In this document: in pieces, positions 1-42,307 of the stretch | Position numbering within the stretch: the stretch's first letter is position 1 | Layout of the letters: each line of letters begins with the position of its first letter | Source of the DNA: Actinomycetota bacterium | GTDB taxonomy: Bacteria > Actinomycetota > Acidimicrobiia > Acidimicrobiales > JAMCPD01 | DNA length: 64,000 nucleotides | Direction of reading: 5' to 3' | Assembly: GCA_023379935.1 (NCBI GenBank) | Contig: JAMCPD010000018.1 | Coordinates: forward strand, 4,567-68,566 | Notes under the pieces: generated by a model | Databases searched by the model: none | The model's input: the letters and a program-made list of their open reading frames with translations, nothing else | Told to the model about the DNA's origin: nothing | Translations under genes and position numbers: made by a program

Positions 1-3000
1 TGGATCACTCCCATTCACCGGATCACCTCCCGCATATACATAAGGCTGGCCACTTATAGCAACTAGCGGATCAACAGAGGTAAACTGTCCTGTAACAGGG
101 TCGTAGTAGCGGTGTATCAGGTAGATAAGACCTGTTGGATCTGTGTAGCCACCGGCATAACCAAATGGGGTAATAGAGGAGACCCCACCTGAGGTCACAT
201 TTCCATAAGCATTATAGGTTGCTTCACCTGTTAGGTTGCCGGAAGAGTTGAAGGTAAATCTTACTCCTTCAGGATCAGAGTAGAGATAAGTGACAGATGT
301 TGATGATGTCGGGCTAGACAGTGATATCTGTTCTGTTGGTGCAGTTCCTTGAGGTCCGTAGATATAGGCATTTGATCCGTCCATCAACAGCTGATCAGAG
401 AGGGTATTCCAAACAAACTGTTGGCCAGTAGCATCGGGTGAAGTCTCAGACATTCTAAGGCCGTCTGCATTGTATGAATAGGTATAAGAAGCTTGAGAGT
501 TTGGGTTTTGACATGTAGCACCAAATTGGTTTCCCGGAGTGAGGCAGTTCATGTTGCCTCGAAGATCATAACCATAGGTAGTGGAAAGAGAAGAGTTGGG
601 GTTTTGACATGTAACACCAAATTGGTTAGCCGGGGTTGCACAGGTTCTTTCTCCTATCTGGTTGTATGAGTAGGTAGGTATAGTATCGGAAGGATAGTTG
701 GGAGGTGATCCAAGTCCACAACCACTCTGAGCTACCCCAGAAGAAGGTTGCACGGAAGATGAATAACATAGCTCACCCGCTGAATCATAAGAGTTGAAAG
801 TAGAAGGTGATGAAGGGTTTGAAGGGACAATTGAGGTTAGTTGAGAAGCGAGTGAATATCCATAGGATGCCTGTGGCCATGAAGAGGTTACCCTAGAAAG
901 TGGATCATAGCTATATCCAGAACTCATCTGGGATTGAAGTTCTCCGTTTATGAGAACTGTATTGGAACTAAAGCGTCCTGTTACATCTTGGTTCCATCCA
1001 TCTTCTATATACCAGTTGAGATTGCCGGGAGTTCCCTCAGAGATCATATCACCGGTATAGTCATTGGCATTGTCGTATCCCAGCCACTGGCTATCTAAGG
1101 AGGGCTGTGTTGAAGCAGGATAGATGACAGATTGTAGATTACCGTTTGGGTCATATGTGTAGCTTGTTGTATTTGAAAGCCAATCTGTCATACTTGTCAT
1201 CTCACCTGTTTGGTTATATGTGTAGTCTAGCACAGTATTAGAAGGCGATGGGGGTGAACTACAAGTTGGATTTGGTGCTATAGGATATGCAACACAGACA
1301 AGGTTGCCATTGTTATCATATCCATAAGAAACTGTCTTTCCTGCTCCGTCAGTTTCAGACACGAGACGGCCAAGCCCATCATAGCTGTAAGTGGTAGTAC
1401 CGGTTGGATCAGTCATTTGTGTGAGCTGCCCACCCTGGTTGTATTGATAGGTTGTGTTGATTGAAGGAACAAGAGCCAGGGCCATTAACCCAGGTTCACA
1501 AAAAGTATTACTTGAAGTAGCAGCGCTACAAGAGGCTGTAGTAGGTGTACCAATTGTAGCTATAACTTTATCTGTTGTAAGGTTGAGTTCCGATACTGTT
1601 GAGTTGGCAGGATTTGTAACCCAAGCGTGGTCTCCCAAAGGTCCAACCACTATATCAAAGGGGTTGTCAAGTACATTATTAGCGCTACCGGTGATTGTGG
1701 TGATTATTGAATCTGTAGTGGTGTTTATTACAGCAACAGCATTGTCAGAAAACTCCGGTACGTAAGCATAGTTTCCGTTTGGACTAAGTGCAACAGTATA
1801 GGCAGGGGATGGAAGTGACACTGAACTTATCTGACCTGTAGTTGTGTTTATTATATCCAAGCTTCCGGAAGTACCGTTTTGAGAAGTATTGGCCACATAA
1901 AGAGTAGAACCATCTGAAGAGATAGCCGAACCCTCAGGAGAGTATATATTTGGACTTGTAAGCGTTCTACATACAGTATACAAAACACAGGATGTACTGT
2001 TAGAAGTTGAAATTACAGCTATATTACCTGGTGTCGGTCCTACTCCAATAACAGGGACAACGACAATATCTGATACATAGAGCCACTTCCCATCGGGACT
2101 TTCAGTCATTAAAATGGGTATTCCCGGCACTTTTATCGTAGTGACAACGGTGTTGGTGGCAGTTGAAACAACAGATACCGTAGCATTGGACGAATCTGTT
2201 ACATATAAATACTGTGCATTTGGGCTAAGTGATAGGGCAAGGCCTACCGGCCCAGCCGGAGGGGCTGAAGGCCCAGCTATTGGAATCGTATCTGTAACTT
2301 GATCTGTTGCTGTATCGATTACAGATACAGTGTTTCCCTTCCCTTGTCCGTAGTTTGCAACGTATGCTTTAGTGCCATCGGCTGAGACAACAATATCTGT
2401 TGGATCTTGTCCAACTGATATGGGAGTACCGGGAGTAGAAGTGCCGTTTTGAAGGTCCACAGGGGTTACTTGTGCGCCGCCCATGTCGCCAACCAACAGT
2501 TGTTTTGACGGAGATATCGCAAGGGAGCGAACAAGACGTCCTGCTGGATCATAAAAAAAGCCTTGTTGGCTTATTGGGGTTGTTTCACCTGTAAGTTGTC
2601 CGGCAATATCATAGGAATAAGAGGTTGTCCTGGCAAGTGGATCTGTGACAGAGGTTGGAAGTGATGGATATGCCGGGTTGTTGTACTGATAGCTTGTGAT
2701 ATTCCCATTTGGATTTGTTGATGACACCACATTGCCGAGTGAGTCATATGAATAATCAGTAATTGCAGCTTGAACAGTCCCCGATCCATCTGTTACAGAT
2801 GCAAGCTGATCATCCTTGTTGTATTGATAAGTAGTTGTTCCGCTAGGAGTTGTAACCGATAGAACGTTTCCATCTTTGTCATAGGTATAGCTTGTGGTTA
2901 TTCCAGAAGGAGAAGCGGGAGTAGGTGGAGTTGTTGTGCTGGCAAGTTCTCCGGCATTATTGTATGTGTATGTGGTTGTATATAAAGATGGAGGGTCAGA

Positions 3001-6000
3001 AGGTGAGGCATGTTTGTCACAAGTTGAGCTCTGATTTGGCCAATGATTGTTCTTTTTGAAACTCTTGGTAAAGTTTCGATTTGCCTTACAGGTTTTAGGG
3101 ATAGCCACAGATGCCAAAGCTATACTTGTTGGGGTCGGTCCAACAAAGATGTTTGGACCAACCTTGGATGTTTTTAGATTGATTGGCACAAGATTTCCTT
3201 GGATATAAGAGGTCACATATCCGTATCTGTTATCTTTTGAAAGTGAGATCCCAAGCGGAGAAGGAACTTTATAAGATGAGACCTCTTTTATATCGTGACT
3301 TGTTGAGCCTTTCAAACCAAAAATAGAAGCCAACCTTTCAAGTGAATGACAGTAAAAGGTTTCATGTGGCAAGCCGGAGCATTTGTTGGCCACTGCAACA
3401 AGGTGCGAAAGCAGTTTACAGTATAATGAAGATAGAGTTAGGCTGCATTTTGAAGGCAGTTTATAAGTATGTATGGTATTGTCTTTTAGCAACAATACCA
3501 GATTGGAAGAGTAAACGCTGACTGCGATCCTATCGCCATCAATGCCAATTCCGGCAGGGTTAGACCCAACTTGAACCGGTGGAGCGGCAGTTAAAGTTGG
3601 TACTCCATTTTTAGTGTCTGGGATAGATATTGAAACCGGCGTAACAGTACCCGAGAACCAGTTTGTCACATAAGCTTCATTTTGAGCTTCCGCCAAAGAT
3701 GGCAAAAGTGCGCCTTGACCTGTTTGAACTGGAGTTCCAACCTGTTTTGTTACAAGGTTTACAGGAGTAAGTGTGCCTTGATCAAAGTTTGTCACATACC
3801 CATATTTGCCGTTCTTGGATACTGTTATTCCAACAGGTGAGTTGCCAACTTGAATTGGTGTCTCTAGAGTCATGGTCTTTAGATTTACAACTATTAGATT
3901 AGATGAACCTAATCCACCTGTTGCATAGAGGGTACTTCCGTTTGGAGACAGTGCCAACATTCCTTTTATCAAAGTTGAACTTTTTACGTCTTCGGTCCCG
4001 ATATACAAACTATGTATGATCTTTTGGGTCTCAGTGTTTATTACAAAAAGCTCACCGGATGAAAAACTTACAACATACAGTTGCTTTCCGTTTCTGCTTG
4101 CAACAAGTGTGTCCGGGGTAACACCTAAAACAATGGGATTGCCGGTAGTGCAGGTTGAAAGATCAACCGGAACTATTGCATCACCTGTTTTGTCTGCAAC
4201 AAATGCTATCTTTTGCTCACGGCTATGGTAAATATAGGCGGTTTTCCCATGAATGTTCGGGCACCCCTTTTGTGGTGTAACAACGGCAGGCGGAAGAAAC
4301 GGTATACAGGGGGAGTTCCCACATGTGGGGCTGGTTGACGGAGTTGGAACTTGTTGTGTGGTTGAGGTTTGAATTGGCGTCTCTGGCATATTGGTTTGAG
4401 TATTGATGGGAAGTATCACAGGGTCAGAACCGTATTCGGTTACATAAACTGTTGCTCCATTTGGAGAAACCGCCACATCAAAAGGTTCAAAGCCAACAGG
4501 TATGGTGTCTACGACAGAAGATGAGGCCGTAGAAATGACACTTACAGTTCCAGAACCCGCATTTGCCACATATAATGCACCTCCTAATGAACCTCCTCCA
4601 TTTGATGAAACGGCTATCCCAATTGGCCAGTTGCCAACTTTAATTGGAGTTTGTGGCTGATTGTTTGCCAAGTCAATCGGGATAACTTCACCGGATCCGG
4701 TAGAGGTATTTGTGACAGTTGTCACATAAGCCATAGTAGGAGTTGCTGTTATCATAATCGGAGTGCCAGGAAGGCTGATGGGATAGCCCGCGCTCCAAGT
4801 GCCACCGGTTTCTGTAAGGGGAGTGACCTCATCAGACCCAGCATCTGTCACATAAGCCCTGTATGTAGATGAGGTGTTGGTGGAGGTGATAGCTACGTCT
4901 ATGGGTTTTGATCCGACATATATTGCTTGGCCGGGTTGATCGTTTGTAAGATTTATCGGAGTCACGGTACCCGGATCAACATTGTTTACAACAAGTGCAG
5001 ATGTTCCATCCGGGGTAGTTGCAATTCCTATAGGGTTTTCTCCAACCGATATGGGAACATCAGAGGATAGTACAGCAGGTGGCGTAGCGGAATCAATGGG
5101 AGTTATAGGGGTGACCTGTCCGCTTAGCACGTTTGAAACATAAAGCTTTTCTCCAAGATTTGGCACATTTGCAAGTGCTATCATAACCGGGGTATCTCCA
5201 ACTTTTAACGGTTGTCCTGGTTGTCCGTTTGTAAGATTTATTGCGGTTACAGTAGACGAAGAAGTGTTTACAACATAAGCATTGTTGTTGCCCACGACAA
5301 TGCCCGTCAAATTTCCCGATAAGGTATCCGGTAAGCCAACAGACATCAGATAGCCTTTTGGTGATGTAGAAGATGTGACCTGTCCGTCTGCATTGTAAGT
5401 ATAGGTGGTGACATCTCCTTTAGGATCAATTGTAGCGACTATATCACCATGGGTGTCATATTCGTAGCGCCAAACTGCACCGTTTGGATCTGTGATTGCG
5501 GTGACATTAGTAGGATAAGCGGGGTCACCATAGGTGTAGGTGGTTGTTGTTTCTCCTCCCGTACCTCCGTCTTGTATAACAGACGTGAGAAGGTCGCTGG
5601 AATCTTGGAGCGTACCATTGACTATCCCAGTCGTCCCCCCGCCATACAAATACGTCGTTTCCGGCAGTGAAGAAGAGGCGGGAGGGATCACGTCTACAAC
5701 TTCATTATATTGATTATAGGTATAAGTGGTTGTTTCACCATCTGGGTTTGTATAAGAGGTAATATTGCCTTCTAGATCGTAGGAAAGATAGGTCACAGAA
5801 CCGTTTGGCGCAACTACTTGGCACGGCTCCATTACAGACAAGCTATTGGTGTTGGTACCGGGTTGGCATATAAAATAGCCGTAAAACCAGGTGGCCATCT
5901 GGGGGGTACCAACCCCGGTTGCCTCTGCTTCTAAAACATTCCCGTCCGCTCTGTAGAGATAGCCTGTCACAGAGCCATTTGGTAAAACCACAAGTGTGGC

Positions 6001-7416
6001 GAATAATGGTTTTTCATTGGTATCAAAAGGGTGGTCTGAATAGTGGTTTTCTTGATAGTAGTTTTCCAGAGACTGATAAATGGACTGTGCATCACCGATA
6101 CCGTTACTAGGACACTCCGTGGAGTTGTTTTCCGTGAAGTTGTTTGTATTTGTATATAAACTGAACTCACCGTTGTAAGGATAGTAGCAGTAATAGGTTG
6201 TATTTCCATTGCCATCAGTTTGAGAGACAATGGGATAGTAACTACTACTGGAGTAAGAACTACCCAATTCTAACGGTGAACTACCATAGGTACTGCTGGT
6301 GAGGGGTGTTGCGGGAAGGGATATTCCGGAACTGGTTGTGATTGGTTGTCCATCAGGATAAGTTATGGAACTGAGGAGACTGGGGAGACTGGGGGAGTTG
6401 TTGGAAGCGGCGGTGTAGGAAAATGAAGTCAGTTTCCCAAGGGGATCAGTAATGCCGGTAAGTTGATCGCTGCTGTTGTAACTGAATTGCTCAGTACGCC
6501 CCATTGGATCTATCGCCTCTATAACTTGAAAATTTGAATTTTTTACCAAAGTAAGACTTTGGCCACTGGTAATATCGGTGATAACGGTACAGCTGGCAAC
6601 TTCAGAACTTTGCGGCGGGCAGGTATTAACACCAGGAGAGACGGTAGTAAAAGTAGTTGTATTGCCATTCCCATCTGTTATTTTAGAAAGAGTTCCCGTG
6701 TAAGTTCCTACGTTAATGGAGCTTATACCGGTAAAGTAGAAGTTTTCTGTTCCATCGTTACGAGAAAGTACAAAGTATGGCTTGGAATAAAGAAAGGTTG
6801 CTGTTGTAATTGTAGTAGGAGTAGATGATGTGTTTACATTAACAGCAGTCCAGGGCTCCCCAGCGCAAGGAGAGGACCCAACACTCCCAATAGGAATACT
6901 AATGCTTGTTGTGTAGGAAACCTCCGAACCGTTCTCCTGAGTAATTGTAGCTGTACAGTTATAGGTAGTAGAAAAAGAGATAATAGAAGAATAGGTACTA
7001 GGTAACGATGAATTGCTAACTGCATTCACCTGTAGCGTAAGTTGCATTGATAAGTTTGACGAAAAACCAATTCCAAAGGGAGAAGTTGGGGGAGGAGTTG
7101 ATGTGGAACTTGTTTGGTTCAAAATATCTTGGGCTTCAAGCGAGTTGTAGTTAAGGGTAAAAGGGAGGTTGATGCCGGCCACAGGGGCGGTCAAAGCAGT
7201 TTTAATCGAATCAGTAAACTCTCCGTTGAAAGGGTCGCAGTAGTTCACTTGTGGCGAAGTTGGTTGTGGAATTGACTTACCTATCTTGTTCAAAGCCCCG
7301 TTGAGATTGGTATTTGAAGGATTACAAGGCCCATCACGAGGTGTACGATAAACTCCATTTACAAATCCAGTTAGTGAAAAGTGTGAATGTGCTATGGGGG
7401 GGGGGGGAGAGAATCC
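1..7416 (-). CDS. RHS/YD-repeat polymorphic-toxin-type protein body with three YVTN-like beta-propeller blocks. The 3' end lies beyond the window, and the body is separated from its signal peptide by the frameshift at 7396-7407.
   Basis: The minus frame with codon first bases at coordinates divisible by 3 is open from 7416 to 1. It is absent from the ORF track because it meets no stop inside the window; the three listed minus ORFs in this span are in another frame. My translation gives YD repeats (RYEYDTHGDIVATIDPKGDVTTYTYNADGQV; YSYDGLGRLVSETDGAGKTVSYGYDNNGNL). It also gives the RHS core end LIHRYYDPVTGQFTSVDPLVAISGQPYVYAGGDPVNGSDP at 1-150. Confidence 0.8.
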
Positions 7417-7586
7417 TTAACGCTTCCAAGAAGTATGGTTACAAGCATTGTGGCCAAAATGCCACGTATTGATATCGATACGAAAAGACGTATACGAGGG
7501 AATAAGCTTCCCCTGTCTGCTTTAGAATAGTATTGGCTTTGAAATAACTGAAATAACATGGCCCTCTCCTTATTATCTATGAGCAT
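7392..7586 (-). CDS. Signal-peptide-like leader ORF of the RHS gene, ending inside the poly-C tract
   Basis: The ORF track lists 64 aa. PRIRLFVSISIRGILATMLVTILLGSV reads as a basic n-region plus a hydrophobic h-region. The ORF ends LPPPP-stop within the C12 run. One extra C (or two fewer) joins it in frame to the RHS body. Confidence 0.6.
   Translation of the reverse strand: MLIDNKERAMLFQLFQSQYYSKADRGSLFPRIRLFVSISIRGILATMLVTILLGSVKDSLPPPP
7396..7407. repeat. Homopolymer G12 (C12 on the coding strand), the longest mononucleotide run I saw in the window
   Basis: Counted directly: gctat + 12 g + aga. Confidence 0.95.
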
Positions 7587-7906
7587 ATTTTTAAACTATT
7601 TATATTCGCCGTTCATACATTGAACCACACGTTAAATAAACATGATTATGTAATCATACAATTAATTGGTTCAGTTATGCAAATTTAAAATATATTTTTT
7701 TTACAGTTGGCGCGTCTTGCTCAGCTCCTAATAATATCCGCTACATGTGCGACACACGTGGGGTTTAAAGCAAGAAGACCAATTGAGTGTTAGCAGCTGA
7801 TATGGAAGAATATTGTCAAGTCACAATCGCCTGAAACTGGCCATTGACAGCGCCTATATGGTCAAGCGTCACCTCTATGGGATCTGTAGCTACTTCTCTA
7901 CAGCTA

Positions 7907-9075
7907 GTGTACTGTCCACCATATCACCACGCGGTTGTGGTATAATGAGGTATGGCTCATCCACCTGCACCCAAATTGAAACTGTCCCCTACTGATAGGC
8001 GTTTTTTAGAAGAGATATCCTCTTTTCCGTCCCGCCCTCACCGAGAAGTTCCTCAGGCCAAGGGTCTACTCATGGCATCTAAAAGGTATTGCCAATATGA
8101 AAATCGCAGATACTCTCGGTGTATCACGCTCAACTGTCATTACCTGGAGAAAGCACTTTTCAGTAGATGGTGTTAAAGGCATTGGGAAGGTTCGCCCAGG
8201 TCGTGGCAGGAAACCCTCCATTGCACCTGAGATAATAGAAAGAGTTGTCAGAGACACTCAACAGACAACTCCTGTCAAATGCTACCCAGTGGTCAGTTCG
8301 AACTATGGCAGCCCATGTAGGGATATCAAAATCCAAGGTGCAAGAGATCTGGGCATCACGTGGACTAAAGCCCCATCTGGTAAAGACTTTCAAACTCTCC
8401 AATGAGCTTAGATTTTGAAGAAAAGCTTGTTGACGTGGTAGGTCTTTATCTTGGACCCACCCGATAATGCTGTAGTCCTATCTGTAGATGATGAAGTCCC
8501 AGATCCAAGCCCTGGATCGTACTCAGCCGTCACTTCCCATGAAAAAAGGTCGAGCTGTGTTAGCAGCTGGGACTATGACTCATGACTACAAGCGTAACGC
8601 CCACCACGACACTCTTTGCCGCTTTAAATATATTGACAGGCATGGTAATTGGAACCTGTATGGAAAGACATCGACATGAAGAGTGGTTGAAGTTCCTGCG
8701 ACTCATTGACAAAAACATCGACAAAGAACTTGATATCCACCTGAATTGCAGACAACTACGCTACCCATAAACACCCCGAAGTAAAAGCATGGCTTAAAAA
8801 GCACCCAAGGTTTCACATACACTTCCGCTTCAACAAGTTCATCATGGCTAAACCTTATAGAATGTTGGTTTAGAGATATAACAACAAAACGTATAAGGCG
8901 TGGAAGCTTTCCAAGCGTCAACAATCTCATAAATGCAATTGAAGACTATATTGCAATCAACAACGAATCACCTACCCCTTTCACGTGGACCAAAACCGCA
9001 AATGTAATTATCGAGAAGGTAAAGCGTGGTCGTGTGGCCCTTGAGCAAGCGCGTATTATTTAATGAACACTACAC
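7907..9075 (+). mobile_element. Decayed IS630-family insertion sequence (~1.17 kb)
   Basis: Imperfect terminal inverted repeats: GTGTACTGTCCA at 7907-7918 and TGAACACTACAC at 9064-9075 (reverse complement GTGTAGTGTTCA). TA precedes the left end. The interior is filled by IS630-type transposase fragments. Confidence 0.65.
7952..9061 (+). pseudogene. IS630-family DDE transposase, broken by several frameshifts
   Basis: The pieces lie in different frames. They include the HTH part IADTLGVSRSTVITWRKHF, then [39 protein letters not shown] and DNYATHKHPEVKAWLKKHPRFHIHF. The last piece is STSSSWLNLIECWFRDITTKRIRRGSF...TWTKTANVIIEKV. Confidence 0.8.
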
Positions 9076-12966: not shown

Positions 12967-13650
12967 GGTTATTAGAGTTTTATCTCCCGACTTTCCTTTG
13001 CGGACTTTATCAAGCAACTGTTCAAGGATTAACTGTGGATCTACTCCCTTGATCCAACAGATAATAGTGGCAGTAATTCCTACACAGTCAACAATTGTGA
13101 CAACTATAGGCGGGATGCCGTTTCCATAAGGTTCGGGCAGAGCATGTAGTGAGTAGAACAGTCCTTGTGCTCCAGCCCCCATGTCCCAAAAAAAAGCGGC
13201 AATGACGGAGCCATAAAAATAGTCTGAGTCTTTGAACCACAGCATCGGTCCCAACCATGCAAAGAAGAGTAATGACCAAAGGGGTCCAATGCGAAAAGAG
13301 TCGGGTATCAGCCCCGCGGCAGGGAAAAACAACATACCTATAAGAAACAGCAGAAAAGCAAGCTTGTTGATCGGCACACTTATAGCAGGTAAAAACGCTA
13401 TGCAAAGAAATATCCCGGCAGGTATTGCCAAAAACATGGTTGAAAATCCATGCCAAGACTGCGGTAACAGCAAGATCAGCAGATGTACGGTTGCAACTTT
13501 CGGAATGGCACCAAAAGTCTTGACAAGTGGAATGGTCTCGGAAAATAGAAGCCAAAGTATTAACGAAACCCCACAAAACGCTTTTACCGCTGCATTATTT
13601 ATGAAAGGGTGAGCATCAGGCAAACCGGTTGATTGTTGATTACTTTCCAT
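12949..13650 (-). CDS. Polytopic membrane protein, function unknown
   Basis: 233-aa ORF with multiple hydrophobic segments. Its 3' end overlaps the tyrS 3' end by 18 nt (convergent). Confidence 0.6.
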   Translation of the reverse strand: MESNQQSTGLPDAHPFINNAAVKAFCGVSLILWLLFSETIPLVKTFGAIPKVATVHLLILLLPQSWHGFSTMFLAIPAGIFLCIAFLPAISVPINKLAFLLFLIGMLFFPAAGLIPDSFRIGPLWSLLFFAWLGPMLWFKDSDYFYGSVIAAFFWDMGAGAQGLFYSLHALPEPYGNGIPPIVVTIVDCVGITATIICWIKGVDPQLILEQLLDKVRKGKSGDKTLITSGKTQ

Positions 13651-16221: not shown

Positions 16222-16644
16222 TTAAGTCAGAGTACCTGGTGATGTTAACCATTCAATATTCTGGCCAGTAATACTGGCGACAAATTCAAAGTCGTGATCA
16301 TAGTGTATCAATGTCAGTAAATTTCTTTCTGCTATCGCTGCAATAAGAAGATCGGGAATTCCTACTGCTCGATGGTGACCCTGCATGGCCAATTTTCCCA
16401 TTACTTCCACCGATCTATTGAAGTCTGCCTGTTCTATGTCAACTCTTTCAAAAGCTTCATTGCGTTCTTGCTTTATTCGACGAAACTCATCGTAGTTTTT
16501 AGCACTGTAAAGCACTTCTAAATCAACTATCGAACAAGTTGAAACTAATCCTTCAAGAATCAAATTCCTCACCCATTCTGCTTCAGGATACTTGAGGCGC
16601 GAAAGAGCACTTTTGTCAACCAGATATCTGGCTTTCAACGCCAT
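16222..16644 (-). CDS. vapC: PIN-domain ribonuclease toxin VapC
   Basis: YLVDKSAL (N-terminal Asp), IPDLLIAAIA and HYDHDFE motifs. It overlaps the upstream antitoxin by 10 nt. Confidence 0.8.
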   Translation of the reverse strand: MALKARYLVDKSALSRLKYPEAEWVRNLILEGLVSTCSIVDLEVLYSAKNYDEFRRIKQERNEAFERVDIEQADFNRSVEVMGKLAMQGHHRAVGIPDLLIAAIAERNLLTLIHYDHDFEFVASITGQNIEWLTSPGTLT

Positions 16645-16841
16645 GCCTGTTTCATTACATCTTCATTATCAAGTTCTAAACCATTCATGTCCACCATTCG
16701 CAAAATAAACTTCCGCCTCGCCTCATGAGCGATCACTTCCTTAAACGAGAGATCGACAGTTTCAGTCAATGTTTTTGCGCCTAAGACTGCTTTTGCCTTC
16801 TCCGCAGTATTTTCATCAATTACGATACTCGTTTTCTTCAA
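16635..16841 (-). CDS. vapB: Type II antitoxin VapB
   Basis: 68 aa, with MKKTSIVIDENTAEKAKAVLGAKTLTETVDLSFKEVI. Its position and overlap with vapC support the call. Confidence 0.7.
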   Translation of the reverse strand: MKKTSIVIDENTAEKAKAVLGAKTLTETVDLSFKEVIAHEARRKFILRMVDMNGLELDNEDVMKQAWR

Positions 16842-28045: not shown

Positions 28046-31000
28046 TTATCCATACCATCCCTCCACATCTACTATAACGTCGGCAGATCCCGATTTGTTG
28101 TAGATAGATATGGCGCCAGACGATGATAGGGGGACCACAACCAGGTTTGATACCGTAGATCCCGATGCCCAGTTCAAGTTGGATGCTGTCGGTTGGGCAG
28201 TACCTTCAGGCCATACGGTAAGGTAGCTGCTTTGGGTGGTGTCGGTTACCGTTATGTTGGCCACTACTGCGCCGATTGAACCGGTTGGTATACCAGAAAC
28301 CCCCGATACCTGAACGTTTAGCACAGAACCGGTCGATAAGGTCTTTCCCGTACAGGCGGCTGCAGCACCGGTTAGCGCAGAAGGATTCGAGGGACGGGTG
28401 TCGCATATCCTAGTAGGGGAGGTAGAGGTAAACACAGTACCAGAAGGGCTGGTGGAAGAGCTGGAGGTATACCATCCCTCCACATCTACTATAACGTCGA
28501 CAGATCCCGAGTAGTTGTAGATAGATATGGATCCAGACGATGATAGGGGGACCACAACCAGGTTTGATACCGTAGATCCCGATGCCCAGTTCAAGTTGGA
28601 TGCTGTCGGTTGGGCAGTACCTTCGGGCCATACGGTGAGGTAGCTGCTTTGGGTGGTGTTGGTTACCGTTATGTTGGCCACTACTGCGCCGATTGAACCG
28701 GTTGGTATACCAGAAACCCCCGATACCTGAACGTTTAGTACAGAACCGGCCGATAAGGTCTTCCCCGTGCAGGCGGCTGCAGCACCGGTTAGCGCAGAAG
28801 GATTCGAGGGACGGGTGTCGCATATCCTGGTGGGGGATCCAAGAGGATTGTACATTCCCGATGGCGAAGAACCCGGCCCAACCCATCCCTCCACATCTAC
28901 TATCACATCAACAGATCCCGCGTAGTTGTAGATGGATATGGCTCCGGAAGATGATAGACCTATCTCAACCAGAACCGACTTTGTCTTGCCTGACACCCAG
29001 TTCAAGTTGGATGCTGTCGGTTGGGCAGTACCTTCAGGCCATGCGGTGAGGTAGCTGCTTTGGGTGGTGTCGGTTACCGTTATGTTGGCCACCACTGCGC
29101 TGATTGAACCGGTTGGTATACCAGAAACCCCAGATACCTGAACGCTAAGTGTTTCAGGGTTAGGGCCTTTTCCTAACGTGTCACCGGCGCAAGGTTCTCC
29201 TGAACCGGCGCGCGTATCACATATGCGGGTTGGCACAGCCAAGCGGTGATAGGCATTACTCAGGTACGTTGTATACCATCCCTCCACATCTACTATAACG
29301 TCGGCAGATCCCGATTTGTTGTAGATAGATATGGCGCCGGACGATGATAGGGGGACCACAACCAGGTTTGATACCGTAGATCCCGATGCCCAGTTTAAGT
29401 TGGATGCTGTCGGTTGGGCAGTACCTTCGGGCCATACGGTAAGGTAGCTGCTTTGGGTGGTGTTGGTTACCGTTATGTTGACCACTACTGCGCCGATTGA
29501 ACCGGTTGGTATACCAGAAACCCCCGATACCTGAACGTTTAGCACAGAACCGGCCGATAAGGTCTTTCCCGTACAGGCGGCTGCAGCACCGGTTAGCGCA
29601 GAAGGATTCGAGGGACGGGTGTCGCATATCCTAGTAGGGGAGGTAGAGGTGAACACAGTACCAGAAGGGCTGGTGGAAGAGCTGGAGGTATACCATCCCT
29701 CCACATCTACTATAACGTCGACAGATCCCGAGTAGTTGTAGATGGATATGGATCCAGACGATGATAGGGGAACCACAACCAGGTTTGATACCGTAGATCC
29801 CGATGCCCAGTTCAAGTTGGATGCTGTCGGTTGGGCAGTACCTTCGGGCCATACGGTAAGGTAGCTGCTTTGGGTGGTGTTGGTTACCGTTATGTTGGCC
29901 ACTACTGCGCCGATTGAACCGGTTGGTATACCAGAAACCCCCGATACCTGAACGTTTAGCACAGAACCGGCCGATAAGGTCTTTCCCGTGCAGGCGGCTG
30001 CAGCACCGGTTAGCGCAGAAGGATTCGAGGGACGGGTGTCGCATATCCTGGTGGGGGATCCAAGAGGATTGTACATTCCCGATGGCGAAGAACCCGGCCC
30101 AACCCATCCCTCCACATCTACTATCACATCAACAGATCCCGCGTAGTTGTAGATGGATATGGCTCCGCTTGGACCCAGTGGTACTTCAACCAGAACCGAC
30201 TTTGTCTCGCCTGACACCCAGTTCAAGTTGGATGCGGTTGGTTGGGCAGTACCTTCGGGCCATATACTCAAGTAGCTGCTTTGGGTGGTGTTGGTTACCG
30301 TTATGTTTGCCACCACTGCGCTGATTGAACTGGTTGGTATACCAGAAACCCCCGATACCTGAACGTTTAGCACAGAACCGGCCGATAAGGTCTTTCCCGT
30401 GCAGTCTACGGCGGCACCGGTTAGCGCAGAAGGATTCGAGGGACGGGTGTCGCATATCCTGGTAGGAGATCCAAGAGGGGTATACGGACCTAATGCCGGT
30501 TGAGCCAGTTCAAGACTCATATTGCTGGATAGGATCACTCCGCTTGAGCTGTCTTGAACACTGTTTGAGGTTGATGGGTTACCTGTGCCGACAGTCCAAC
30601 AAAACGCTGTTGAGGGACAGCTCAGTGAAGTTGAGGAGTAAAGAGAAACCGAAGTAACTCCTTGCGCCAGCGGTATTTCACTCCAGCTTTTCCCGCTGTC
30701 GGTAGTTGCAAGTGAGATTGGGAGAGATCCGGCAACCCCCGATGATGCCATTGCCCAGCAGTCAACTGAGTTGGGGCAAGATATTGAATATACAGCATCA
30801 ACCGAAGACGGAAGGGGTGTTTCAGTCCATAACGCTCCCGAGTCGTTTGTCGTAAGCATCACAGCGCCCCCTATTGACGTGGAGTTCAGCAGATAACCTC
30901 CGGCCAGGCATACACCAGTTGTGGGACAGTACACAGTAGCGATATCCCCAACCGCAGATGGTATGGTTTGGACGGTCCAAGTTGCACCGGAATTGGAGGT

Positions 31001-31864
31001 TGTCAATACCACTCCCTGCTGATTGTTGGGAGATCCGTTAGTTCCCGATAGCCAACAGGTAGTCGATGTTGGGCAGGAAACAGACTGGGGAGAAAATGAA
31101 GAGATGGGAACGGTCTCAGGCGACCAACTGGCTCCTCCGTTTGTTGTAGACAGTATAAGCGGTGTCCCTTGCCCGTTATTTTCGGTGCCGGCGGCAAAGC
31201 AGTAATCGGGAGTCGGACAGTCTATCGTTTTCAGGGAGATCGGCCAAGAAGAGAAAACGGCCGAAGGAATGGTTTGAGGCGACCAACTGGCTCCTCCGTT
31301 TGTTGTAAAGAGTGCGACGGTAGTCGTACCGTTATTATCCGTACTATAGCCGACAGCCCAACAGTTGAACCCGTTAGCACACCAAACAGCGGAAAGTACG
31401 CTCGGTGCATTGGCGGTAGGTATGGTATCACTGCTCCATGTAGAGCCTGAATTCGAACTTTGTAAAATTACGGGAGCATTGTTAGATGTATCGTAGTTAC
31501 CTACCGCAAAACACGATAGAAATGTTGGACAAGAGATTGAATTCAGTCCAATCCCGGAATTTACGTATTGGATATTCCAACCATATCCGGGTGTAGATAA
31601 GGTTGTGCCAGAATTGACTGCATGGGGGGCAACTGCAGATGGTTTATAGGGCGCGGTGGCAGTATTGGAAGTGACAGTATTGGAAGTGACAGTATTGGAA
31701 GTGACAGTATTGGAAACTGTCGTAGATTGTAAATAGTAAGAGCCGGATAAAAACAGTAATATAAATATGGATCGCAATACCAAGGTTGATATCGATCGGA
31801 AACACCGCAAGTGTAGTTTTTCGGTTATGGCATCACTTTTGGATATACTGCGGTCTTTGGACAC
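28046..31864 (-). CDS. Secreted/anchored surface protein: six-bladed Asp-box (BNR) propeller plus six tandem copies of an uncharacterised ~125-aa domain
   Basis: N-terminal hydrophobic segment. Six SxxxGxxW boxes (SNSGSTW, TNGGASW x2, SNSGATW, NDSGALW, TDSGKSW), each blade with a CPxxxxC pair. Six units carry RICDTR...NITVT...SNLNW...DVIVDVEGW. Confidence 0.85.
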   Translation of the reverse strand: MSKDRSISKSDAITEKLHLRCFRSISTLVLRSIFILLFLSGSYYLQSTTVSNTVTSNTVTSNTVTSNTATAPYKPSAVAPHAVNSGTTLSTPGYGWNIQYVNSGIGLNSISCPTFLSCFAVGNYDTSNNAPVILQSSNSGSTWSSDTIPTANAPSVLSAVWCANGFNCWAVGYSTDNNGTTTVALFTTNGGASWSPQTIPSAVFSSWPISLKTIDCPTPDYCFAAGTENNGQGTPLILSTTNGGASWSPETVPISSFSPQSVSCPTSTTCWLSGTNGSPNNQQGVVLTTSNSGATWTVQTIPSAVGDIATVYCPTTGVCLAGGYLLNSTSIGGAVMLTTNDSGALWTETPLPSSVDAVYSISCPNSVDCWAMASSGVAGSLPISLATTDSGKSWSEIPLAQGVTSVSLYSSTSLSCPSTAFCWTVGTGNPSTSNSVQDSSSGVILSSNMSLELAQPALGPYTPLGSPTRICDTRPSNPSALTGAAVDCTGKTLSAGSVLNVQVSGVSGIPTSSISAVVANITVTNTTQSSYLSIWPEGTAQPTASNLNWVSGETKSVLVEVPLGPSGAISIYNYAGSVDVIVDVEGWVGPGSSPSGMYNPLGSPTRICDTRPSNPSALTGAAAACTGKTLSAGSVLNVQVSGVSGIPTGSIGAVVANITVTNTTQSSYLTVWPEGTAQPTASNLNWASGSTVSNLVVVPLSSSGSISIYNYSGSVDVIVDVEGWYTSSSSTSPSGTVFTSTSPTRICDTRPSNPSALTGAAAACTGKTLSAGSVLNVQVSGVSGIPTGSIGAVVVNITVTNTTQSSYLTVWPEGTAQPTASNLNWASGSTVSNLVVVPLSSSGAISIYNKSGSADVIVDVEGWYTTYLSNAYHRLAVPTRICDTRAGSGEPCAGDTLGKGPNPETLSVQVSGVSGIPTGSISAVVANITVTDTTQSSYLTAWPEGTAQPTASNLNWVSGKTKSVLVEIGLSSSGAISIYNYAGSVDVIVDVEGWVGPGSSPSGMYNPLGSPTRICDTRPSNPSALTGAAAACTGKTLSAGSVLNVQVSGVSGIPTGSIGAVVANITVTNTTQSSYLTVWPEGTAQPTASNLNWASGSTVSNLVVVPLSSSGSISIYNYSGSVDVIVDVEGWYTSSSSTSPSGTVFTSTSPTRICDTRPSNPSALTGAAAACTGKTLSTGSVLNVQVSGVSGIPTGSIGAVVANITVTDTTQSSYLTVWPEGTAQPTASNLNWASGSTVSNLVVVPLSSSGAISIYNKSGSADVIVDVEGWYG
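28049..30490 (-). repeat. Tandem super-repeat of 1,221 bp (3 domain units) x2, near-identical over most of its length
   Basis: ORF-track pairs are offset by exactly 1,221 nt: 28410..28886 vs 29631..30107 (152/158 aa identical) and 28693.. vs 29914.. Protein units 2 and 5 are identical. Confidence 0.9.
31661..31720 (-). repeat. 15-bp in-frame tandem repeat x4 (SNTVT)
   Basis: agtattggaagtgac x3, plus one imperfect copy. Confidence 0.9.
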
Positions 31865-37991: not shown

Positions 37992-39365
37992 GTGCAAAAG
38001 TCACTCAATGCGCTTGGTCCAATGGGGAAAAGTGGTCGACTGCTTCTTGGGGCACGCCTTTTGGTGAGTACTGTCAGAAGCTTAGCCGGAATAGTTGTTC
38101 CAATCTATCTTGCCTTATCGGGATTTTCCGCTCTGGAGCTGGGGGTACTGTTTGTAGTGGTTGGATTGACCTCTGCTCTCTTTTCTATAACGGTCGCTGC
38201 ATTTGTCAATAAACTTGGATGTAAGTTCTTTCTGATACTTTTCCCAATTTTGCTGGCGTTAGCTGCCGGCGGTTTCGCTGTGACTACTTTACCTCCTCTG
38301 TTATTTATTTTTGCCGCCATCGGTACGTTTGGTAGGGGAGCGGGAGCAGGAGCGGGAGCAGTCGGCCCTTATCAACCGGCTGAACAGACATATATAACCC
38401 AACTGGTAGCTCCGACACTTCGTAATCAAGTGTTCGGGCTTTTTGGGTCGGCAAGCGCACTCGGAGGAGTGCTAGGTGGGCTGCTGGCACTATTCTTCCG
38501 TGCCACCCCTCATACGGCTGTATTGAGCTTCTTTAGACCGGGCTTTATTGTAATTGCAACCGTTTCCTTCACAGCGGGATTATTGGCTGTATTTATTGTC
38601 GGGCACAAAGATGCATCACTTATACAAGATATTGGGGATTCTACCGGTCCAACTTCTACCGGTCCAACTTCTACCGGTCCAGCCAATCTTCCAAGTAAAA
38701 CCAGACCGCCGGTGCGGTACAGCTCGGATGGACTTTTTTCTCTCTCTAAGAGCGCCCGCTCTTTAACCTTAAAGCTGTTTTTCACCAATGCCGTAAATGG
38801 GGTGGCCATCGGAATGTTCGCTCCATTCTTATCCTACTGGCTTTACCTGCGTTTTCATGCAAATCCAGCCGAGATAGGTATACTGTTTGTTTTCATCAAC
38901 TTAATTTCGGTTGTATCGACACTATCGGCTGCTAATATAGCAAACCGGTTCGGATTGTTGCGTGCAATAGTGATGACAAGGATTGTGCAGTCTGTTTTGC
39001 TGATTCCATTTGCTTTTTCCCCAAACCTGTTAATTGCAGGACTTATACTTGGGTGTCGTATGTTGGTTCAAAGAATCGGAATGCCGCTTCGCCAGTCATA
39101 TGTAATGGGAGTCCTCAATCCGGATGAACGTGCACGCGTTAGTGCTCTCTCCAACTTGGGATCTCAGTTGATGATGACCCTAAGCCCGCTGTTATCGGGT
39201 GAAATATTGGCGGAGATGGCTCTGAGCTTACCTTTTGGGATAGCCGGAGTTGTCCAGTTGATCAATGCGGTTATGTTCTACATCTTCTTTCATAAAATCT
39301 TGCCGGAAGATGAACGCCAAGAGGTATCAGAGCAAGAAGAACGGTATACTTTAGACTACCCATGA
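37992..39365 (+). CDS. MFS-type transporter
   Basis: About 12 hydrophobic segments in two halves, separated by a central loop that carries the STGPT repeat. Confidence 0.6.
   Translation: MQKSLNALGPMGKSGRLLLGARLLVSTVRSLAGIVVPIYLALSGFSALELGVLFVVVGLTSALFSITVAAFVNKLGCKFFLILFPILLALAAGGFAVTTLPPLLFIFAAIGTFGRGAGAGAGAVGPYQPAEQTYITQLVAPTLRNQVFGLFGSASALGGVLGGLLALFFRATPHTAVLSFFRPGFIVIATVSFTAGLLAVFIVGHKDASLIQDIGDSTGPTSTGPTSTGPANLPSKTRPPVRYSSDGLFSLSKSARSLTLKLFFTNAVNGVAIGMFAPFLSYWLYLRFHANPAEIGILFVFINLISVVSTLSAANIANRFGLLRAIVMTRIVQSVLLIPFAFSPNLLIAGLILGCRMLVQRIGMPLRQSYVMGVLNPDERARVSALSNLGSQLMMTLSPLLSGEILAEMALSLPFGIAGVVQLINAVMFYIFFHKILPEDERQEVSEQEERYTLDYP
38640..38684 (+). repeat. 15-bp in-frame tandem repeat x3 (STGPT)
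   Basis: tctaccggtccaact x2, plus tctaccggtccagcc. Confidence 0.9.
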
Positions 39366-42307
39366 TAAACTGTTTCAAAAGAGTTTATACCTTTCGTGTC
39401 GGCCTAATCATCTCAGCCTATACCGTTATAGCATTGGCCACTTATGGGATCCCCATAGTTCTCGGTAACCCTATCTTGCGGAACTCCAACTTAATCCAGA
39501 ACTACCCTTTGCGAGCTTTGGTCGGCATCGATCTTGCCCATGGTCATCTTCCACTTTGGAATCCGTACATTTGGAGTGGCACGCCACTGTTGGCGGGGTT
39601 TAATGCCGGAGCAGCTTATCCGCTTACATGGCTGTTTGCGGTGTTGCCCGCCAAAATAGCTTGGGTGGTGAACCAGGCCTCCGGTCAGGTTGTAGCTGCC
39701 GTCGGAATGCTGGTCTATGCGCGTCTTCGCGGGCGTTGTTGGTGGGCGGGGTTCCTTGCCGGGCTGGCATATGGATTCGGCGGATTCATAGTTGCTCAAA
39801 ACGTTCATATCGGCTTGGTGCTCTCAGCGGCATGGTTGCCTTGGTGTATAGTGGCCTTGGACCGATTGGCATATCGGCCGCAAGAGCAGAAAAAGGGTTG
39901 GGCGGAGATTCGCTCGCTATCTCCTTGGGTAGCACTGCTCGCTGCTTCATTCGCGATGATGATTCTCGCTGCTTCACCCGGACCGATACTCGACTCAATA
40001 CCGGTAATTGCTGCGATTATCTGTGTAAGCGCTATACGCGTGCCAAAACGAAGATATCAGATTATCTTTGGTGCTTTTGCTGCACTATGCTTAAGTGCGC
40101 TTGCTTCATCCGTCCAGTGGTTGCCCGGTGCACTATTTCAGGCTTCATCGCAGCGTAAAACTGTAACGTATGCTTATTTTACATCGGGGTCTTTTCCAAA
40201 AGGACTGACTTTTTTGGGTGTAGACCCTGTTCTTGTCGGTAGCGCACATAGTAAGGTAATAGGCTTTCTGGGATCCGGAGGACTGCAGGGAATCCCTGAA
40301 ATATCCTTTTATGTCGGTATTGGCGCGGCTGTGGCGGTATTCGGGTTACTTTCGTATCGCTACCGCCATACGTTACAAGGTAGGGAACGTTGGTTGTGGT
40401 ATGGGATATTGATGGGGGGACTTCTCCTTGCTTTCGGGTCACTTACACCACTTAGCCATTTGGAATACCTGATTCCCTTTTATAACACCCAACGTATGTT
40501 GAACAGGAATTTAATGGAGGTTGACTTGGCCTTGGCTGTCTTGTTGGCGGATTGGACAGACATAGTCCTCGGGCGTTGTAGGGATGGGCTGCAATCGGGC
40601 GTTGTTGGGACAACTTATCCCACTCCATCCTCCGACAAAAAAACCAAGCAACATAAATGGGTTGATTTTTTCCATCAAAATGACCACTTACTGCTTCCAG
40701 CGCTGCCAATCATAATCGTAGTCATACTCCTCTTACTAATTGTATTTATAGGATCGGATGTTATAGGAACATTGGGAGGAGGACATTCACCGGTAAACAG
40801 TTCGGATATTTGGCGTATTGTGTTGGCATCTCTAATTCCTTTTGCTGTTGGGGTTGGCTGGTGGACACTTTACTTTAGGGCGCCACATTGGCGCCGTAGG
40901 CGCTTGGGGATAGTTCTTGTCCTTATGACTATTGTCGATTTGGGTTACTATGGGTTCATGGTAACCCCTTCTCCCATGCCTAACTCGATTACTCAACCTA
41001 AAGGCAGTTTCGTCAGTCAGCTTAAGCACACCTTGCAAGCCGAAACCGCGAAGAACGGTAGCGTTGCGCCACGCATTGTTATCTATGACCCGTTGATACT
41101 TCATTTGCCCAGCCTCAATCGTTTGGGCCAACCCGACCTTACCTTACTTCAGGGTTTACAAACTGCGGGAGGCTATGGCGCTTTGGTTGAGCGGTCATAC
41201 CAGAACGCAACAGATTCTCATTCACAGCTGGACTTTTCCCCATCAGCACTAGCCGGTAGTTTGGCAACAGCGCTGGATATTGGCGTGCTTATAACATTAC
41301 CGCAGTACTTCTTGCATCGCATTACTGTCCAAAGCGGTAGCACTAGTAATTCCAGTAATTCCAGTAATTCCAGCTACCTTACACCTCCACCTCCTACACA
41401 AACTACCTTATCACAAAAAGCCTCACATACGTGGTTTTTCGGGAGCAACCTGACTTTACGTAAAGTCGTGTTTCCACTCCTCTCCTTTAGGGCACACTCT
41501 TTACGTACTGGAACAAACCGCAGTTTGCCCAAGTTCAACGTCGGACTGTTATCCGCTGATTCCGCTTCAATCGCTTGGTTACCATCATCTGCATACTCCG
41601 TTCAAACAAAAAATGAATCTGAAATCGTACACTTCTTCCACCCGGTCTCTGCCGCCGGAATTGCAGTTCGCCTGATGTCCAACACCACCCATGAGGCAAT
41701 AAAGGTAGGTTATCTTAGTATTTATACAACGATACAAGGTTCAAAAGCCCAAGCCGTATATAGGTTGGACGGCTCACTCATTGATTCTGTTACCTCTCCC
41801 CACTGGTACTTTGCCGGTGAGATTGGGGCATTTTCCCTATTCCGTAACTCCTATCTTCAAGCTCCTGTGCATATTGTCAACAAGCTCAACGGTCAACCGG
41901 TTCAAAAAAGCTCATCACGGGTGATTGAACAGATGCCATGGGGAACGACTGCGGTGGAGGTCAATACACCCAAACCCGCCTTACTTGTTCGATCCGCCAC
42001 TACATCAGCAGGATGGACGGCAGCGTTGTATCACATACCACCCAACACCGACCGGCAGTTGCCGTCGAAGCCATTATCCTATACCGCAGAGGTTCACAGC
42101 TTCGGCCTCCTCCAAGCGGTTTCACTGCCGAAAGGGCACTTCATTGTGGTCTTTCGCTTCTTCCCGCAGGTTGTAAAGGTAACTTTGTTTATTTCAGTAC
42201 TCGGTTGGTTCTTATTGGCACTCCTTGTGGGTTGGCAAACCTGTTGGATTTTGATGCAACGTAGCCAGTCTTGGTCACTCTATCGGAGTACTAAGAAACC
42301 CTCCTGA
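39362..42307 (+). CDS. YfhO-like large polytopic membrane protein (putative GT-C-type glycosyltransferase)
   Basis: The N-terminal DLAHGHLPLWNPYIWSGTPLLAGFNAGAAYP resembles the YfhO signature. There are many TM segments and a large C-terminal extracytoplasmic part. Confidence 0.5.
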   Translation: MINCFKRVYTFRVGLIISAYTVIALATYGIPIVLGNPILRNSNLIQNYPLRALVGIDLAHGHLPLWNPYIWSGTPLLAGFNAGAAYPLTWLFAVLPAKIAWVVNQASGQVVAAVGMLVYARLRGRCWWAGFLAGLAYGFGGFIVAQNVHIGLVLSAAWLPWCIVALDRLAYRPQEQKKGWAEIRSLSPWVALLAASFAMMILAASPGPILDSIPVIAAIICVSAIRVPKRRYQIIFGAFAALCLSALASSVQWLPGALFQASSQRKTVTYAYFTSGSFPKGLTFLGVDPVLVGSAHSKVIGFLGSGGLQGIPEISFYVGIGAAVAVFGLLSYRYRHTLQGRERWLWYGILMGGLLLAFGSLTPLSHLEYLIPFYNTQRMLNRNLMEVDLALAVLLADWTDIVLGRCRDGLQSGVVGTTYPTPSSDKKTKQHKWVDFFHQNDHLLLPALPIIIVVILLLLIVFIGSDVIGTLGGGHSPVNSSDIWRIVLASLIPFAVGVGWWTLYFRAPHWRRRRLGIVLVLMTIVDLGYYGFMVTPSPMPNSITQPKGSFVSQLKHTLQAETAKNGSVAPRIVIYDPLILHLPSLNRLGQPDLTLLQGLQTAGGYGALVERSYQNATDSHSQLDFSPSALAGSLATALDIGVLITLPQYFLHRITVQSGSTSNSSNSSNSSYLTPPPPTQTTLSQKASHTWFFGSNLTLRKVVFPLLSFRAHSLRTGTNRSLPKFNVGLLSADSASIAWLPSSAYSVQTKNESEIVHFFHPVSAAGIAVRLMSNTTHEAIKVGYLSIYTTIQGSKAQAVYRLDGSLIDSVTSPHWYFAGEIGAFSLFRNSYLQAPVHIVNKLNGQPVQKSSSRVIEQMPWGTTAVEVNTPKPALLVRSATTSAGWTAALYHIPPNTDRQLPSKPLSYTAEVHSFGLLQAVSLPKGHFIVVFRFFPQVVKVTLFISVLGWFLLALLVGWQTCWILMQRSQSWSLYRSTKKPS
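41345..41371 (+). repeat. 9-bp in-frame tandem repeat x3 (SNS)
   Basis: agtaattcc x3. Confidence 0.9.

Follow-up and report, generated by a model that had tools for sequence, protein, structure and literature searches.

A 12-nucleotide poly(C) tract, a candidate phase-variable site, separates leader and body of a predicted RHS toxin gene in an actinobacterium

The window analysed here, a 64 kb stretch of contig JAMCPD010000018.1 (GenBank assembly GCA_023379935.1) from an actinobacterial metagenome-assembled genome (MAG), carries on its minus strand a very long gene for a predicted RHS/YD-repeat toxin that is interrupted near its 5' end by a run of 12 cytosines. In the sequenced allele, a signal-like leader and the body of the toxin lie in different frames on either side of this tract, and a gain of a single nucleotide in the tract would join them. 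Leader and body belong to one gene, since the only homologue found holds leader, a proline linker and body in a single frame. We tentatively propose, at a little below an even chance, that the tract is a slippage-prone phase-variable site for which the OFF state is in the majority, i.e., a candidate contingency locus.

Results

The poly(C) tract puts leader and body in different frames

Direct reading of the sequence gives a tract of exactly 12 C, occupying 7407-7396 on the minus strand (G12 on the plus strand), within GGA AGC GTT AAG GAT TCT CTC CCC CCC CCC CCA TAG CAC ATT. Upstream of it lies a leader open reading frame (ORF) of 55 codons plus a TAG stop at 7394-7392 (7392-7559, minus strand), in which a basic N-region is followed by the hydrophobic core GILATMLVTILLGSV. 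With a Kyte-Doolittle mean of 2.2 for this core, the leader looks like a Sec-type signal or a membrane anchor. Its likely start is ATG 7559-7557; an upstream in-frame alternative, ATG 7586, is the mechanical start of the ORF. A strong Shine-Dalgarno-like sequence, AAGGAGAG (7564-7571, minus strand), can be read 4 nt before ATG 7559 and is adjoined by an AT-rich intergenic stretch (7590-7700) upstream of the leader.

The RHS/YD-repeat body (1-7395, minus strand) occupies the -1 frame relative to the leader, and the N-terminal signal of the sequenced allele is not in frame with the repeats. The body frame is stop-free from ATA 7395 for 2,465 codons in the window and goes on for another 176 codons past window position 1, a region that we read from the near-identical contig JAMDDC010000005.1 of assembly GCA_023489215.1; this makes 2,641 stop-free codons in all. 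On the upstream side, the frame is closed by a TAA at 7417-7419 (minus strand), 8 codons before ATA 7395. The first ATG, GTG or TTG in the body frame is TTG 7293-7291, 102 nt after the ATA, and the next is GTG 7248-7246, so that 34 codons (7294-7395, minus strand) separate the tract from the first possible start. Both codons have been used in public gene calls on the minus strand: TTG (7291-7293), which has no convincing ribosome-binding site, starts the 2,607-aa protein annotated in GCA_023489215.1, and GTG (7246-7248) starts the 2,592-aa protein (P0151) of the second NCBI MAG.

We translated tract lengths of 9 to 15 nt in silico from ATG 7559. With 10 C (LPPPI) or 13 C (LPPPPI), a single ORF of 2,695 or 2,696 aa results, whereas all other lengths give products of 54-75 aa, with the stop directly after the prolines for 9, 12 and 15 C and about 20 codons beyond them for 11 and 14 C. 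In the re-fused gene, the tract is the frameshift site at codons 51-55, encoding (L)PPPP; the junction of the product spans DSLPPPPIAHSHF, with VKDSLPPPPIAHSHFSLTGF as the junction peptide. The preliminary description of this DNA, drawn from the letters of the window, agrees with these results throughout: it had placed 12 C at 7396-7407, read the end of the leader as CTC CCC CCC CCC CCA TAG, seen a body of more than 2,400 codons that is closed upstream by the TAA at 7417-7419 and has its start candidates more than 100 nt beyond the tract, and predicted that 13 or 10 C would carry the leader into that body.

A single-frame homologue joins leader and body

To our exhaustive phmmer search with the repaired N-terminus, 1.84 billion representative proteins yielded one homologue, P0029 (E = 3.6e-14). 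This is the RHS protein of MAG GCA_021801795.1 (contig JAJYXR010000037.1, locus L013; 65% GC), which is 37-39% identical to the window protein and shows the same sequence of leader, PPP, GPCNPS, CDPFNG, YD repeats and propeller blocks. Unlike the window gene, it comes from a 65% GC genome and has leader and body in one frame, without a homopolymer. The ORF in L013 is open from ATG 9800 and reads MTQPPRRRGHGLLRPSLVSLIGAAVLVASLGGLVRIVAAPPPFHPELAWYRSMRSPREGPCNPSEARMNAKVAKIGK, i.e., a basic N-region, a hydrophobic core (Kyte-Doolittle mean 2.4), PPP and the body; across the junction, the leader, AAPPPF, SPREGPCNPS, KIGK and CDPFNG follow each other in the same frame. The three prolines are encoded by CCG CCA CCT, and the 16 kb L013 locus contains no homopolymer of 7 nt or more. 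A further difference is that the RHS frame of P0029 stops early, at aa 1,974 (counting from ATG 9800), 0.5 kb before the end of the contig. After this premature end, an unrelated 166-aa ORF without Pfam match (L013 15724-16260) reaches the contig end, which may reflect an insertion or a break in the assembly.

When the repaired window N-terminus was compared with L013 by BLASTP, residues 34-145 aligned across the junction (E = 8e-23), and the leader of the window aligns with that of L013. The similarity is not confined to the annotated proteins, as the residues upstream of the annotated starts by themselves match L013 with E = 1e-8. Between the tract and TTG 7293, the block R-x-P-R-D/E-G-P-C-N-P-S is kept at the amino acid level while 8 of its codons have synonymous third-base differences. 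Because the amino acids are kept despite these synonymous changes, we conclude that 7294-7395 is translated and is not a 5' untranslated region. Together with the single frame of L013, this shows that leader and body are one gene for a predicted exported toxin of about 2,695 aa. The claim of the preliminary description that the tract separates a signal-like RHS leader from the RHS body is thus upheld, by the in-frame homologue and by the alignment across the junction.

Two genes as annotated, in which the body would begin at TTG 7293 or GTG 7248 and the leader would be a small or non-coding ORF with no relation to it, is the least credible of the alternatives we considered: gene callers did pick internal starts in both MAGs, and the L013 homologue is likewise called from an internal ATG with GAGG upstream, but conservation of the protein can be followed upstream from TTG 7293 for at least 34 codons and on across the proline motif as far as the hydrophobic leader, ATG 7559 has AAGGAGAG while TTG 7293 has no credible ribosome-binding site, and an RHS toxin lacking an export signal has no known route out of a monoderm cell. 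A body expressed independently from the TTG or the GTG was rejected, as conservation reaches upstream of both codons, and we judge the two annotated starts to be gene-caller artefacts. For P0029, the gene call starts at internal ATG 10001 (GAGG upstream) and drops an in-frame N-terminus of 67 codons with the leader (L013 9800-10001). Both family members are therefore mis-started in public gene calls, since the P0029 and window calls each omit the leader.

Other searches for relatives of the N-terminus gave little. Contigs of GTDB genomes yielded nothing but distant YD-repeat matches, and JGI metagenome contigs gave no N-terminus match either by single sequence or by profile. A word-indexed protein search, with the repaired N-terminus or with a two-sequence profile, returned just YD-repeat matches below 1,000 aa or nothing; this search gave no protein above 1,000 aa at all and missed both the 2,607-aa product of the window and P0029, so that its negatives for long proteins are untrustworthy.

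The interrupted gene has the layout of an RHS toxin

The body contains RHS/YD repeats in 13 stretches matching PF05593 (E = 3.8e-66) and 9 stretches matching TIGR01643 (E = 1e-53), followed by an RHS-associated core (TIGR03696, aa 2394-2465, E = 7e-16). The core ends in a DPxGL cleavage-type motif, here GGDPVNGSDPSGLAW, after which comes a tip of about 170 aa. Directly downstream, an 89-aa immunity-like ORF overlaps the RHS stop by 4 nt; neither this ORF nor the toxin tip matched any family in Pfam. The order along the gene is N-terminal signal or anchor, short proline linker, DUF6531-like region, YD repeats with beta-propeller inserts, RHS core and tip. By its repeats, core and locus layout, we regard the gene as predicting a bona fide RHS/YD-repeat toxin, and beyond the window the locus is apparently of the standard RHS toxin-immunity type, with a putative immunity role for the 89-aa product.

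Two features of this locus deserve separate mention. Blocks of YVTN/YncE/lactonase-type beta-propeller lie between the YD-repeat blocks (body aa ~690-1480 and ~1600-1960); they are common to the window protein and P0029, and such inserts are unusual among RHS toxins. Beyond the 89-aa ORF (L018 10001-15584), there follow a 219-aa ORF, three orphan RHS-tip ORFs (307, 258 and 354 aa), a 70-aa ORF and the contig end. The three orphan tips have weak TEN_YD-shell matches, and the whole looks like an orphan toxin/immunity array.

The tract is a local outlier in a conserved linker

Across the 64 kb of the window, no G/C run other than the C12 tract exceeds 7 nt. The spectrum of G/C run lengths (62 runs of 5 nt, 11 of 6, 5 of 7 and 1 of 12) is empty between 7 and 12 nt, and a first-order Markov model predicts approximately 0.008 runs of 12 nt or more per 64 kb, or approximately 0.4 per 3 Mb. 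The tract is hence a local outlier, yet chance alone could give a genome one run of this kind. The A/T homopolymers of the window include A8 at 13188-13195 and T8 at 7695-7702 and 58583-58590. We also considered that the tract might be a mere consequence of encoding PPPP. This was rejected since proline codon usage disagrees: CCC makes up 25% of the proline codons in the other genes of the window and 18% in the RHS body, and all remaining PPP and PPPP runs of the window are spelled in mixed codons. That CCC is a minority proline codon and that no other G/C run exceeds 7 nt in 64 kb together suggest that the tract is non-random. Because the L013 homologue spells its PPP as CCG CCA CCT, the tract is also derived, and C12 is a lineage-specific homopolymer placed in a conserved proline linker.

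The gene carries a single lesion, and 12 C recurs in both assemblies

Over approximately 2,640 codons, the C12 frameshift is the sole lesion; tip, RHS core and immunity-like ORF are intact. A decayed pseudogene would be expected to show several lesions or a lost coding signature, and here there is one lesion only. What decay looks like can be seen next to the gene, where an IS630-family remnant (7900-9060, plus strand; HTH_29/HTH_32 and DDE_3 domains) has accumulated at least 6 frameshifts or stops in approximately 1.1 kb. The contrast between a frameshift that stands alone in a long gene and a remnant with at least 6 lesions argues that the RHS gene is not long-decayed. The remnant itself lies between the RHS promoter region and an SDR gene; short-read contigs of other sequencing runs end at its borders and show 1-4 single-nucleotide polymorphisms (SNPs), so that the element is probably repeated or polymorphic.

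The tract length of 12 is found in both (2/2) of the near-identical NCBI MAG assemblies that reach it. These are separate assemblies, with contigs of 149,221 and 150,324 bp and differing protein accessions, and they differ by one SNP: over 21,576 bp, the window and contig JAMDDC010000005.1 of GCA_023489215.1 are distinguished only by position 8664, within the IS630 remnant. Since both assemblies have 12 C, a random consensus error is less favoured. Independent k-mer (short-read) assemblies of other runs are 100% identical to the window in overlaps of 5.0, 3.0, 1.9, 1.5, 0.9 and 0.8 kb (approximately 12 kb in total), and the other long genes of the window (1,597, 1,272 and 981 aa) are unbroken; both observations make a generic indel-error problem in the assembly unlikely. 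The contigs that we obtained from approximately 13 SRA/ENA runs, via the AMP-ligase, the SDR gene, an IS fragment and the immunity gene, are all 5.2 kb or shorter and end before the tract, breaking at the IS630 remnant or at the repeated RHS core. Sequence data with this organism include the runs SRR10278331, SRR10201746, SRR10252151, SRR10267473, SRR10244963, SRR10238610, SRR10276728, SRR22746145, SRR22746114 and SRR22746127, and the reads underlying ERZ27237364.

Discussion

A proposed slippage-prone site with the OFF state in the majority

The reading that we tentatively favour starts from the structure of the site, which is that of a homopolymer contingency locus: the tract lies in the 5' coding region, its length toggles the frame, and the downstream ORF is otherwise intact. 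The consensus 12-C genotype would make only the 55-aa leader peptide and leave the toxin body without a start codon and an export signal, which corresponds to an OFF state. A G/C homopolymer of 12 nt should be especially prone to slipped-strand mispairing when the DNA is replicated, and in an actinobacterial repair background without indel correction, as may be expected from the phylum, bases would frequently be gained or lost at the tract. Gain of one C (13 C, LPPPPI) or loss of two (10 C, LPPPI) would re-fuse the signal to the toxin and switch the gene ON, the remaining lengths being OFF. The population would then be a mixture of toxin-exporting and silent cells, amounting to stochastic phase variation of an antagonism weapon, with OFF as the likely majority state in the sampled communities.

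We infer a high slippage rate from the length of the tract together with actinobacterial repair. According to PMC5290159, MutS-MutL is missing from almost all Actinobacteria, and the alternative system, NucS, leaves indels unrepaired in vivo (PMC7015689). A precedent is M. tuberculosis, for which phase variation at homopolymers has been documented (PMC10334774); the preliminary description likewise pointed to reversible homopolymer frameshifts in Actinobacteria. The host here is a deep-branching actinobacterium with approximately 46% GC. The matches of its tyrosyl-tRNA synthetase do not exceed 57-58% identity, the nearest named ones coming from Acidimicrobiales MAGs, and outside the RHS locus the window carries ordinary chromosomal genes, among them gltBD, those of the glycine cleavage system, aro genes, amtB and tyrS.

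Several observations weigh against a phase-variable site. Polymorphism of tract length is not seen: each of the two assemblies reaching the tract has 12 C, and the sampled population, 100% identical from run to run, seems clonal. Of the three outcomes that the preliminary description had left open (a switch, a fixed pseudogene or a sequencing error), this agreement leans against a random consensus error and, by the criterion set in that description, gives no positive sign of switching. An ON allele was not found either, the 90% protein cluster of the RHS protein consisting of two truncated calls only. Look-ups of the leader ORF gave no record, and exact look-ups of ten leader variants (9, 11, 12, 14 and 15 C) returned none of them; as the actual 12-C form was also missing, this result carries no weight either way. 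In addition, the 64 kb window has no second long G/C tract that would hint at a genome-wide contingency-locus strategy; with approximately 0.4 expected in a genome of ~3 Mb, one run of 12 is near chance. Finally, frameshifts arise at homopolymers anyway, so that the location of the lesion is no proof of design.

In a stronger version of the proposal, the tract would be an evolved switch, as opposed to an incidentally hypermutable site, and would gate the RHS weapon by coupling and uncoupling its Sec signal in a free-living, uncultured, Acidimicrobiia-like actinobacterium. We consider this doubtful, if worth keeping in mind for what it would imply. A clonal population would steadily yield a few armed cells while most are spared the cost, and homopolymer phase variation would reach beyond the surface antigens of host-pathogen interactions and the drug tolerance of mycobacteria, into polymorphic-toxin warfare in the environment.

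Alternatives to a phase-variable site

The alternative that survives best, although we regard it as rather unlikely, is a recent and effectively fixed pseudogene, in which the gene was disabled by slippage (e.g., from 13 to 12 or from 10 to 12) and its OFF allele has since swept through the population or is neutral. The same out-of-frame length in both assemblies is what such an allele would give, as are the clonal population across runs and the missing ON variant in the protein collection, and the region seems to be in flux, with the decayed IS630 remnant adjoining and orphan RHS tips downstream. Against this stand the single lesion in approximately 2,640 codons and the intact immunity-like gene, where true decay nearby, in the IS630 remnant, amounts to at least 6 lesions in approximately 1.1 kb. 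Moreover, a G/C run of 12 nt is mutationally unstable, so that reversion is expected whether or not the tract is "used".

A homopolymer consensus error, i.e., a real tract of 13 or 10 C in an intact gene with a frameshift introduced by sequencing or assembly, strikes us as distinctly improbable. G/C homopolymers of 12 nt are error-prone on every platform, and the MAG contigs of approximately 150 kb span the IS remnant that breaks short-read contigs, so that long reads may be involved. The agreement of two separate assemblies on 12 C speaks against an error, however, and so do the identity with the k-mer assemblies of other runs over approximately 12 kb and the unbroken genes of 1,597, 1,272 and 981 aa.

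The 12-C allele could also be expressed by recoding, which would produce some full-length signal-RHS protein without any change in the DNA, either through slippage of RNA polymerase on the G12 template or through ribosomes slipping by -1 with tRNA-Pro at C CCC CCC/CCA, aided by polyproline stalling and the immediate TAG. The sequence has some of the expected properties: C CCC CCC formally matches the slippery pattern X XXY YYZ, a stop stands right behind four prolines, and the required shift is -1, straight into the body frame. tRNA-Pro is prone to frameshifting on C-runs, and ribosomes stall at PPPP without EF-P. We nevertheless hold recoding by either route to be very improbable. A downstream stimulatory structure was not found, with minimum free energy z-scores against shuffled sequences of +0.6 for the 106 nt downstream and +1.7 for the 101 nt around the tract, and the two-frame layout is not kept, the sole homologue being single-frame with mixed proline codons. 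Transcriptional slippage in bacteria, furthermore, is established for A/T runs and not for G/C runs.

Relation to known systems and implications

Known homopolymer contingency loci include the poly-G/C tracts of surface genes in Campylobacter, Neisseria and Haemophilus, and the glpK 7C and ESX-1-associated tracts of M. tuberculosis (PMC10334774, PMC11898584, bioRxiv 10.1101/717272). The site that we propose to be phase-variable resembles them in having a G/C homopolymer in the 5' part of an ORF whose remainder is intact, with the length setting the frame such that one in three is ON, in the predicted surface or secreted nature of its product, and in an actinobacterial host that is expected to lack mismatch repair of indels. 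It differs in that C12 is longer than the mycobacterial tracts, which are scored from 7 nt upward, and in that length polymorphism, the defining trait of contingency loci, contrasts with 12 C in 2/2 assemblies here. The host is also an uncultured environmental MAG and not a host-adapted pathogen, and the gene encodes an RHS polymorphic toxin. No poly-C tract controlling an RHS or polymorphic toxin turned up in our literature searches.

For the protein itself, we compared the window product with WapA of Bacillus subtilis, which we take to represent the Sec-signal RHS/YD-repeat toxins of monoderm bacteria. Shared with this type are an N-terminal signal-like sequence, YD/RHS repeats, an RHS core ending in DPxGL, a variable C-terminal tip followed by a small immunity-like gene, and orphan tips downstream. 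The window protein is far larger (~2,695 aa), however, and has YVTN/YncE-like beta-propeller blocks between its repeat blocks; its first ~290 aa have one homologue among the 1.84 billion representatives, the tip and the immunity-like protein are without Pfam match, and in the sequenced state its signal lies out of frame.

If the length of the tract varies, the gene would be a phase-variable RHS polymorphic toxin, for which the literature searches gave no described example. It would be a case in an environmental actinobacterium, where phase variation has barely been explored outside Mycobacterium, and would suggest bet-hedging on the cost of keeping and exporting a toxin of 2,700 aa. If the tract is fixed at 12 C or is a consensus error, the finding is ordinary. 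There is a practical consequence as well: both public annotations begin at an internal TTG or GTG, which masks the frameshift and the signal peptide, and correcting them is worthwhile.

Other features of the window

Scanning the window for Rfam families and tRNAs gave no matches. Away from the RHS locus, a PIN-domain gene (16222-16841, minus strand; 140 aa, PF01850, E = 1e-11) follows a 68-aa ORF with which it overlaps, in the manner of a VapBC-like toxin-antitoxin pair. Three further large ORFs, at 28046-31864 (minus strand; 1,272 aa), 39362-42307 (plus strand; 981 aa) and 42307-44169 (plus strand; 620 aa), have none or only sub-threshold Pfam matches, those of the 1,272-aa ORF being weak ones of BNR/Ycf48-like and DUF7709 type.

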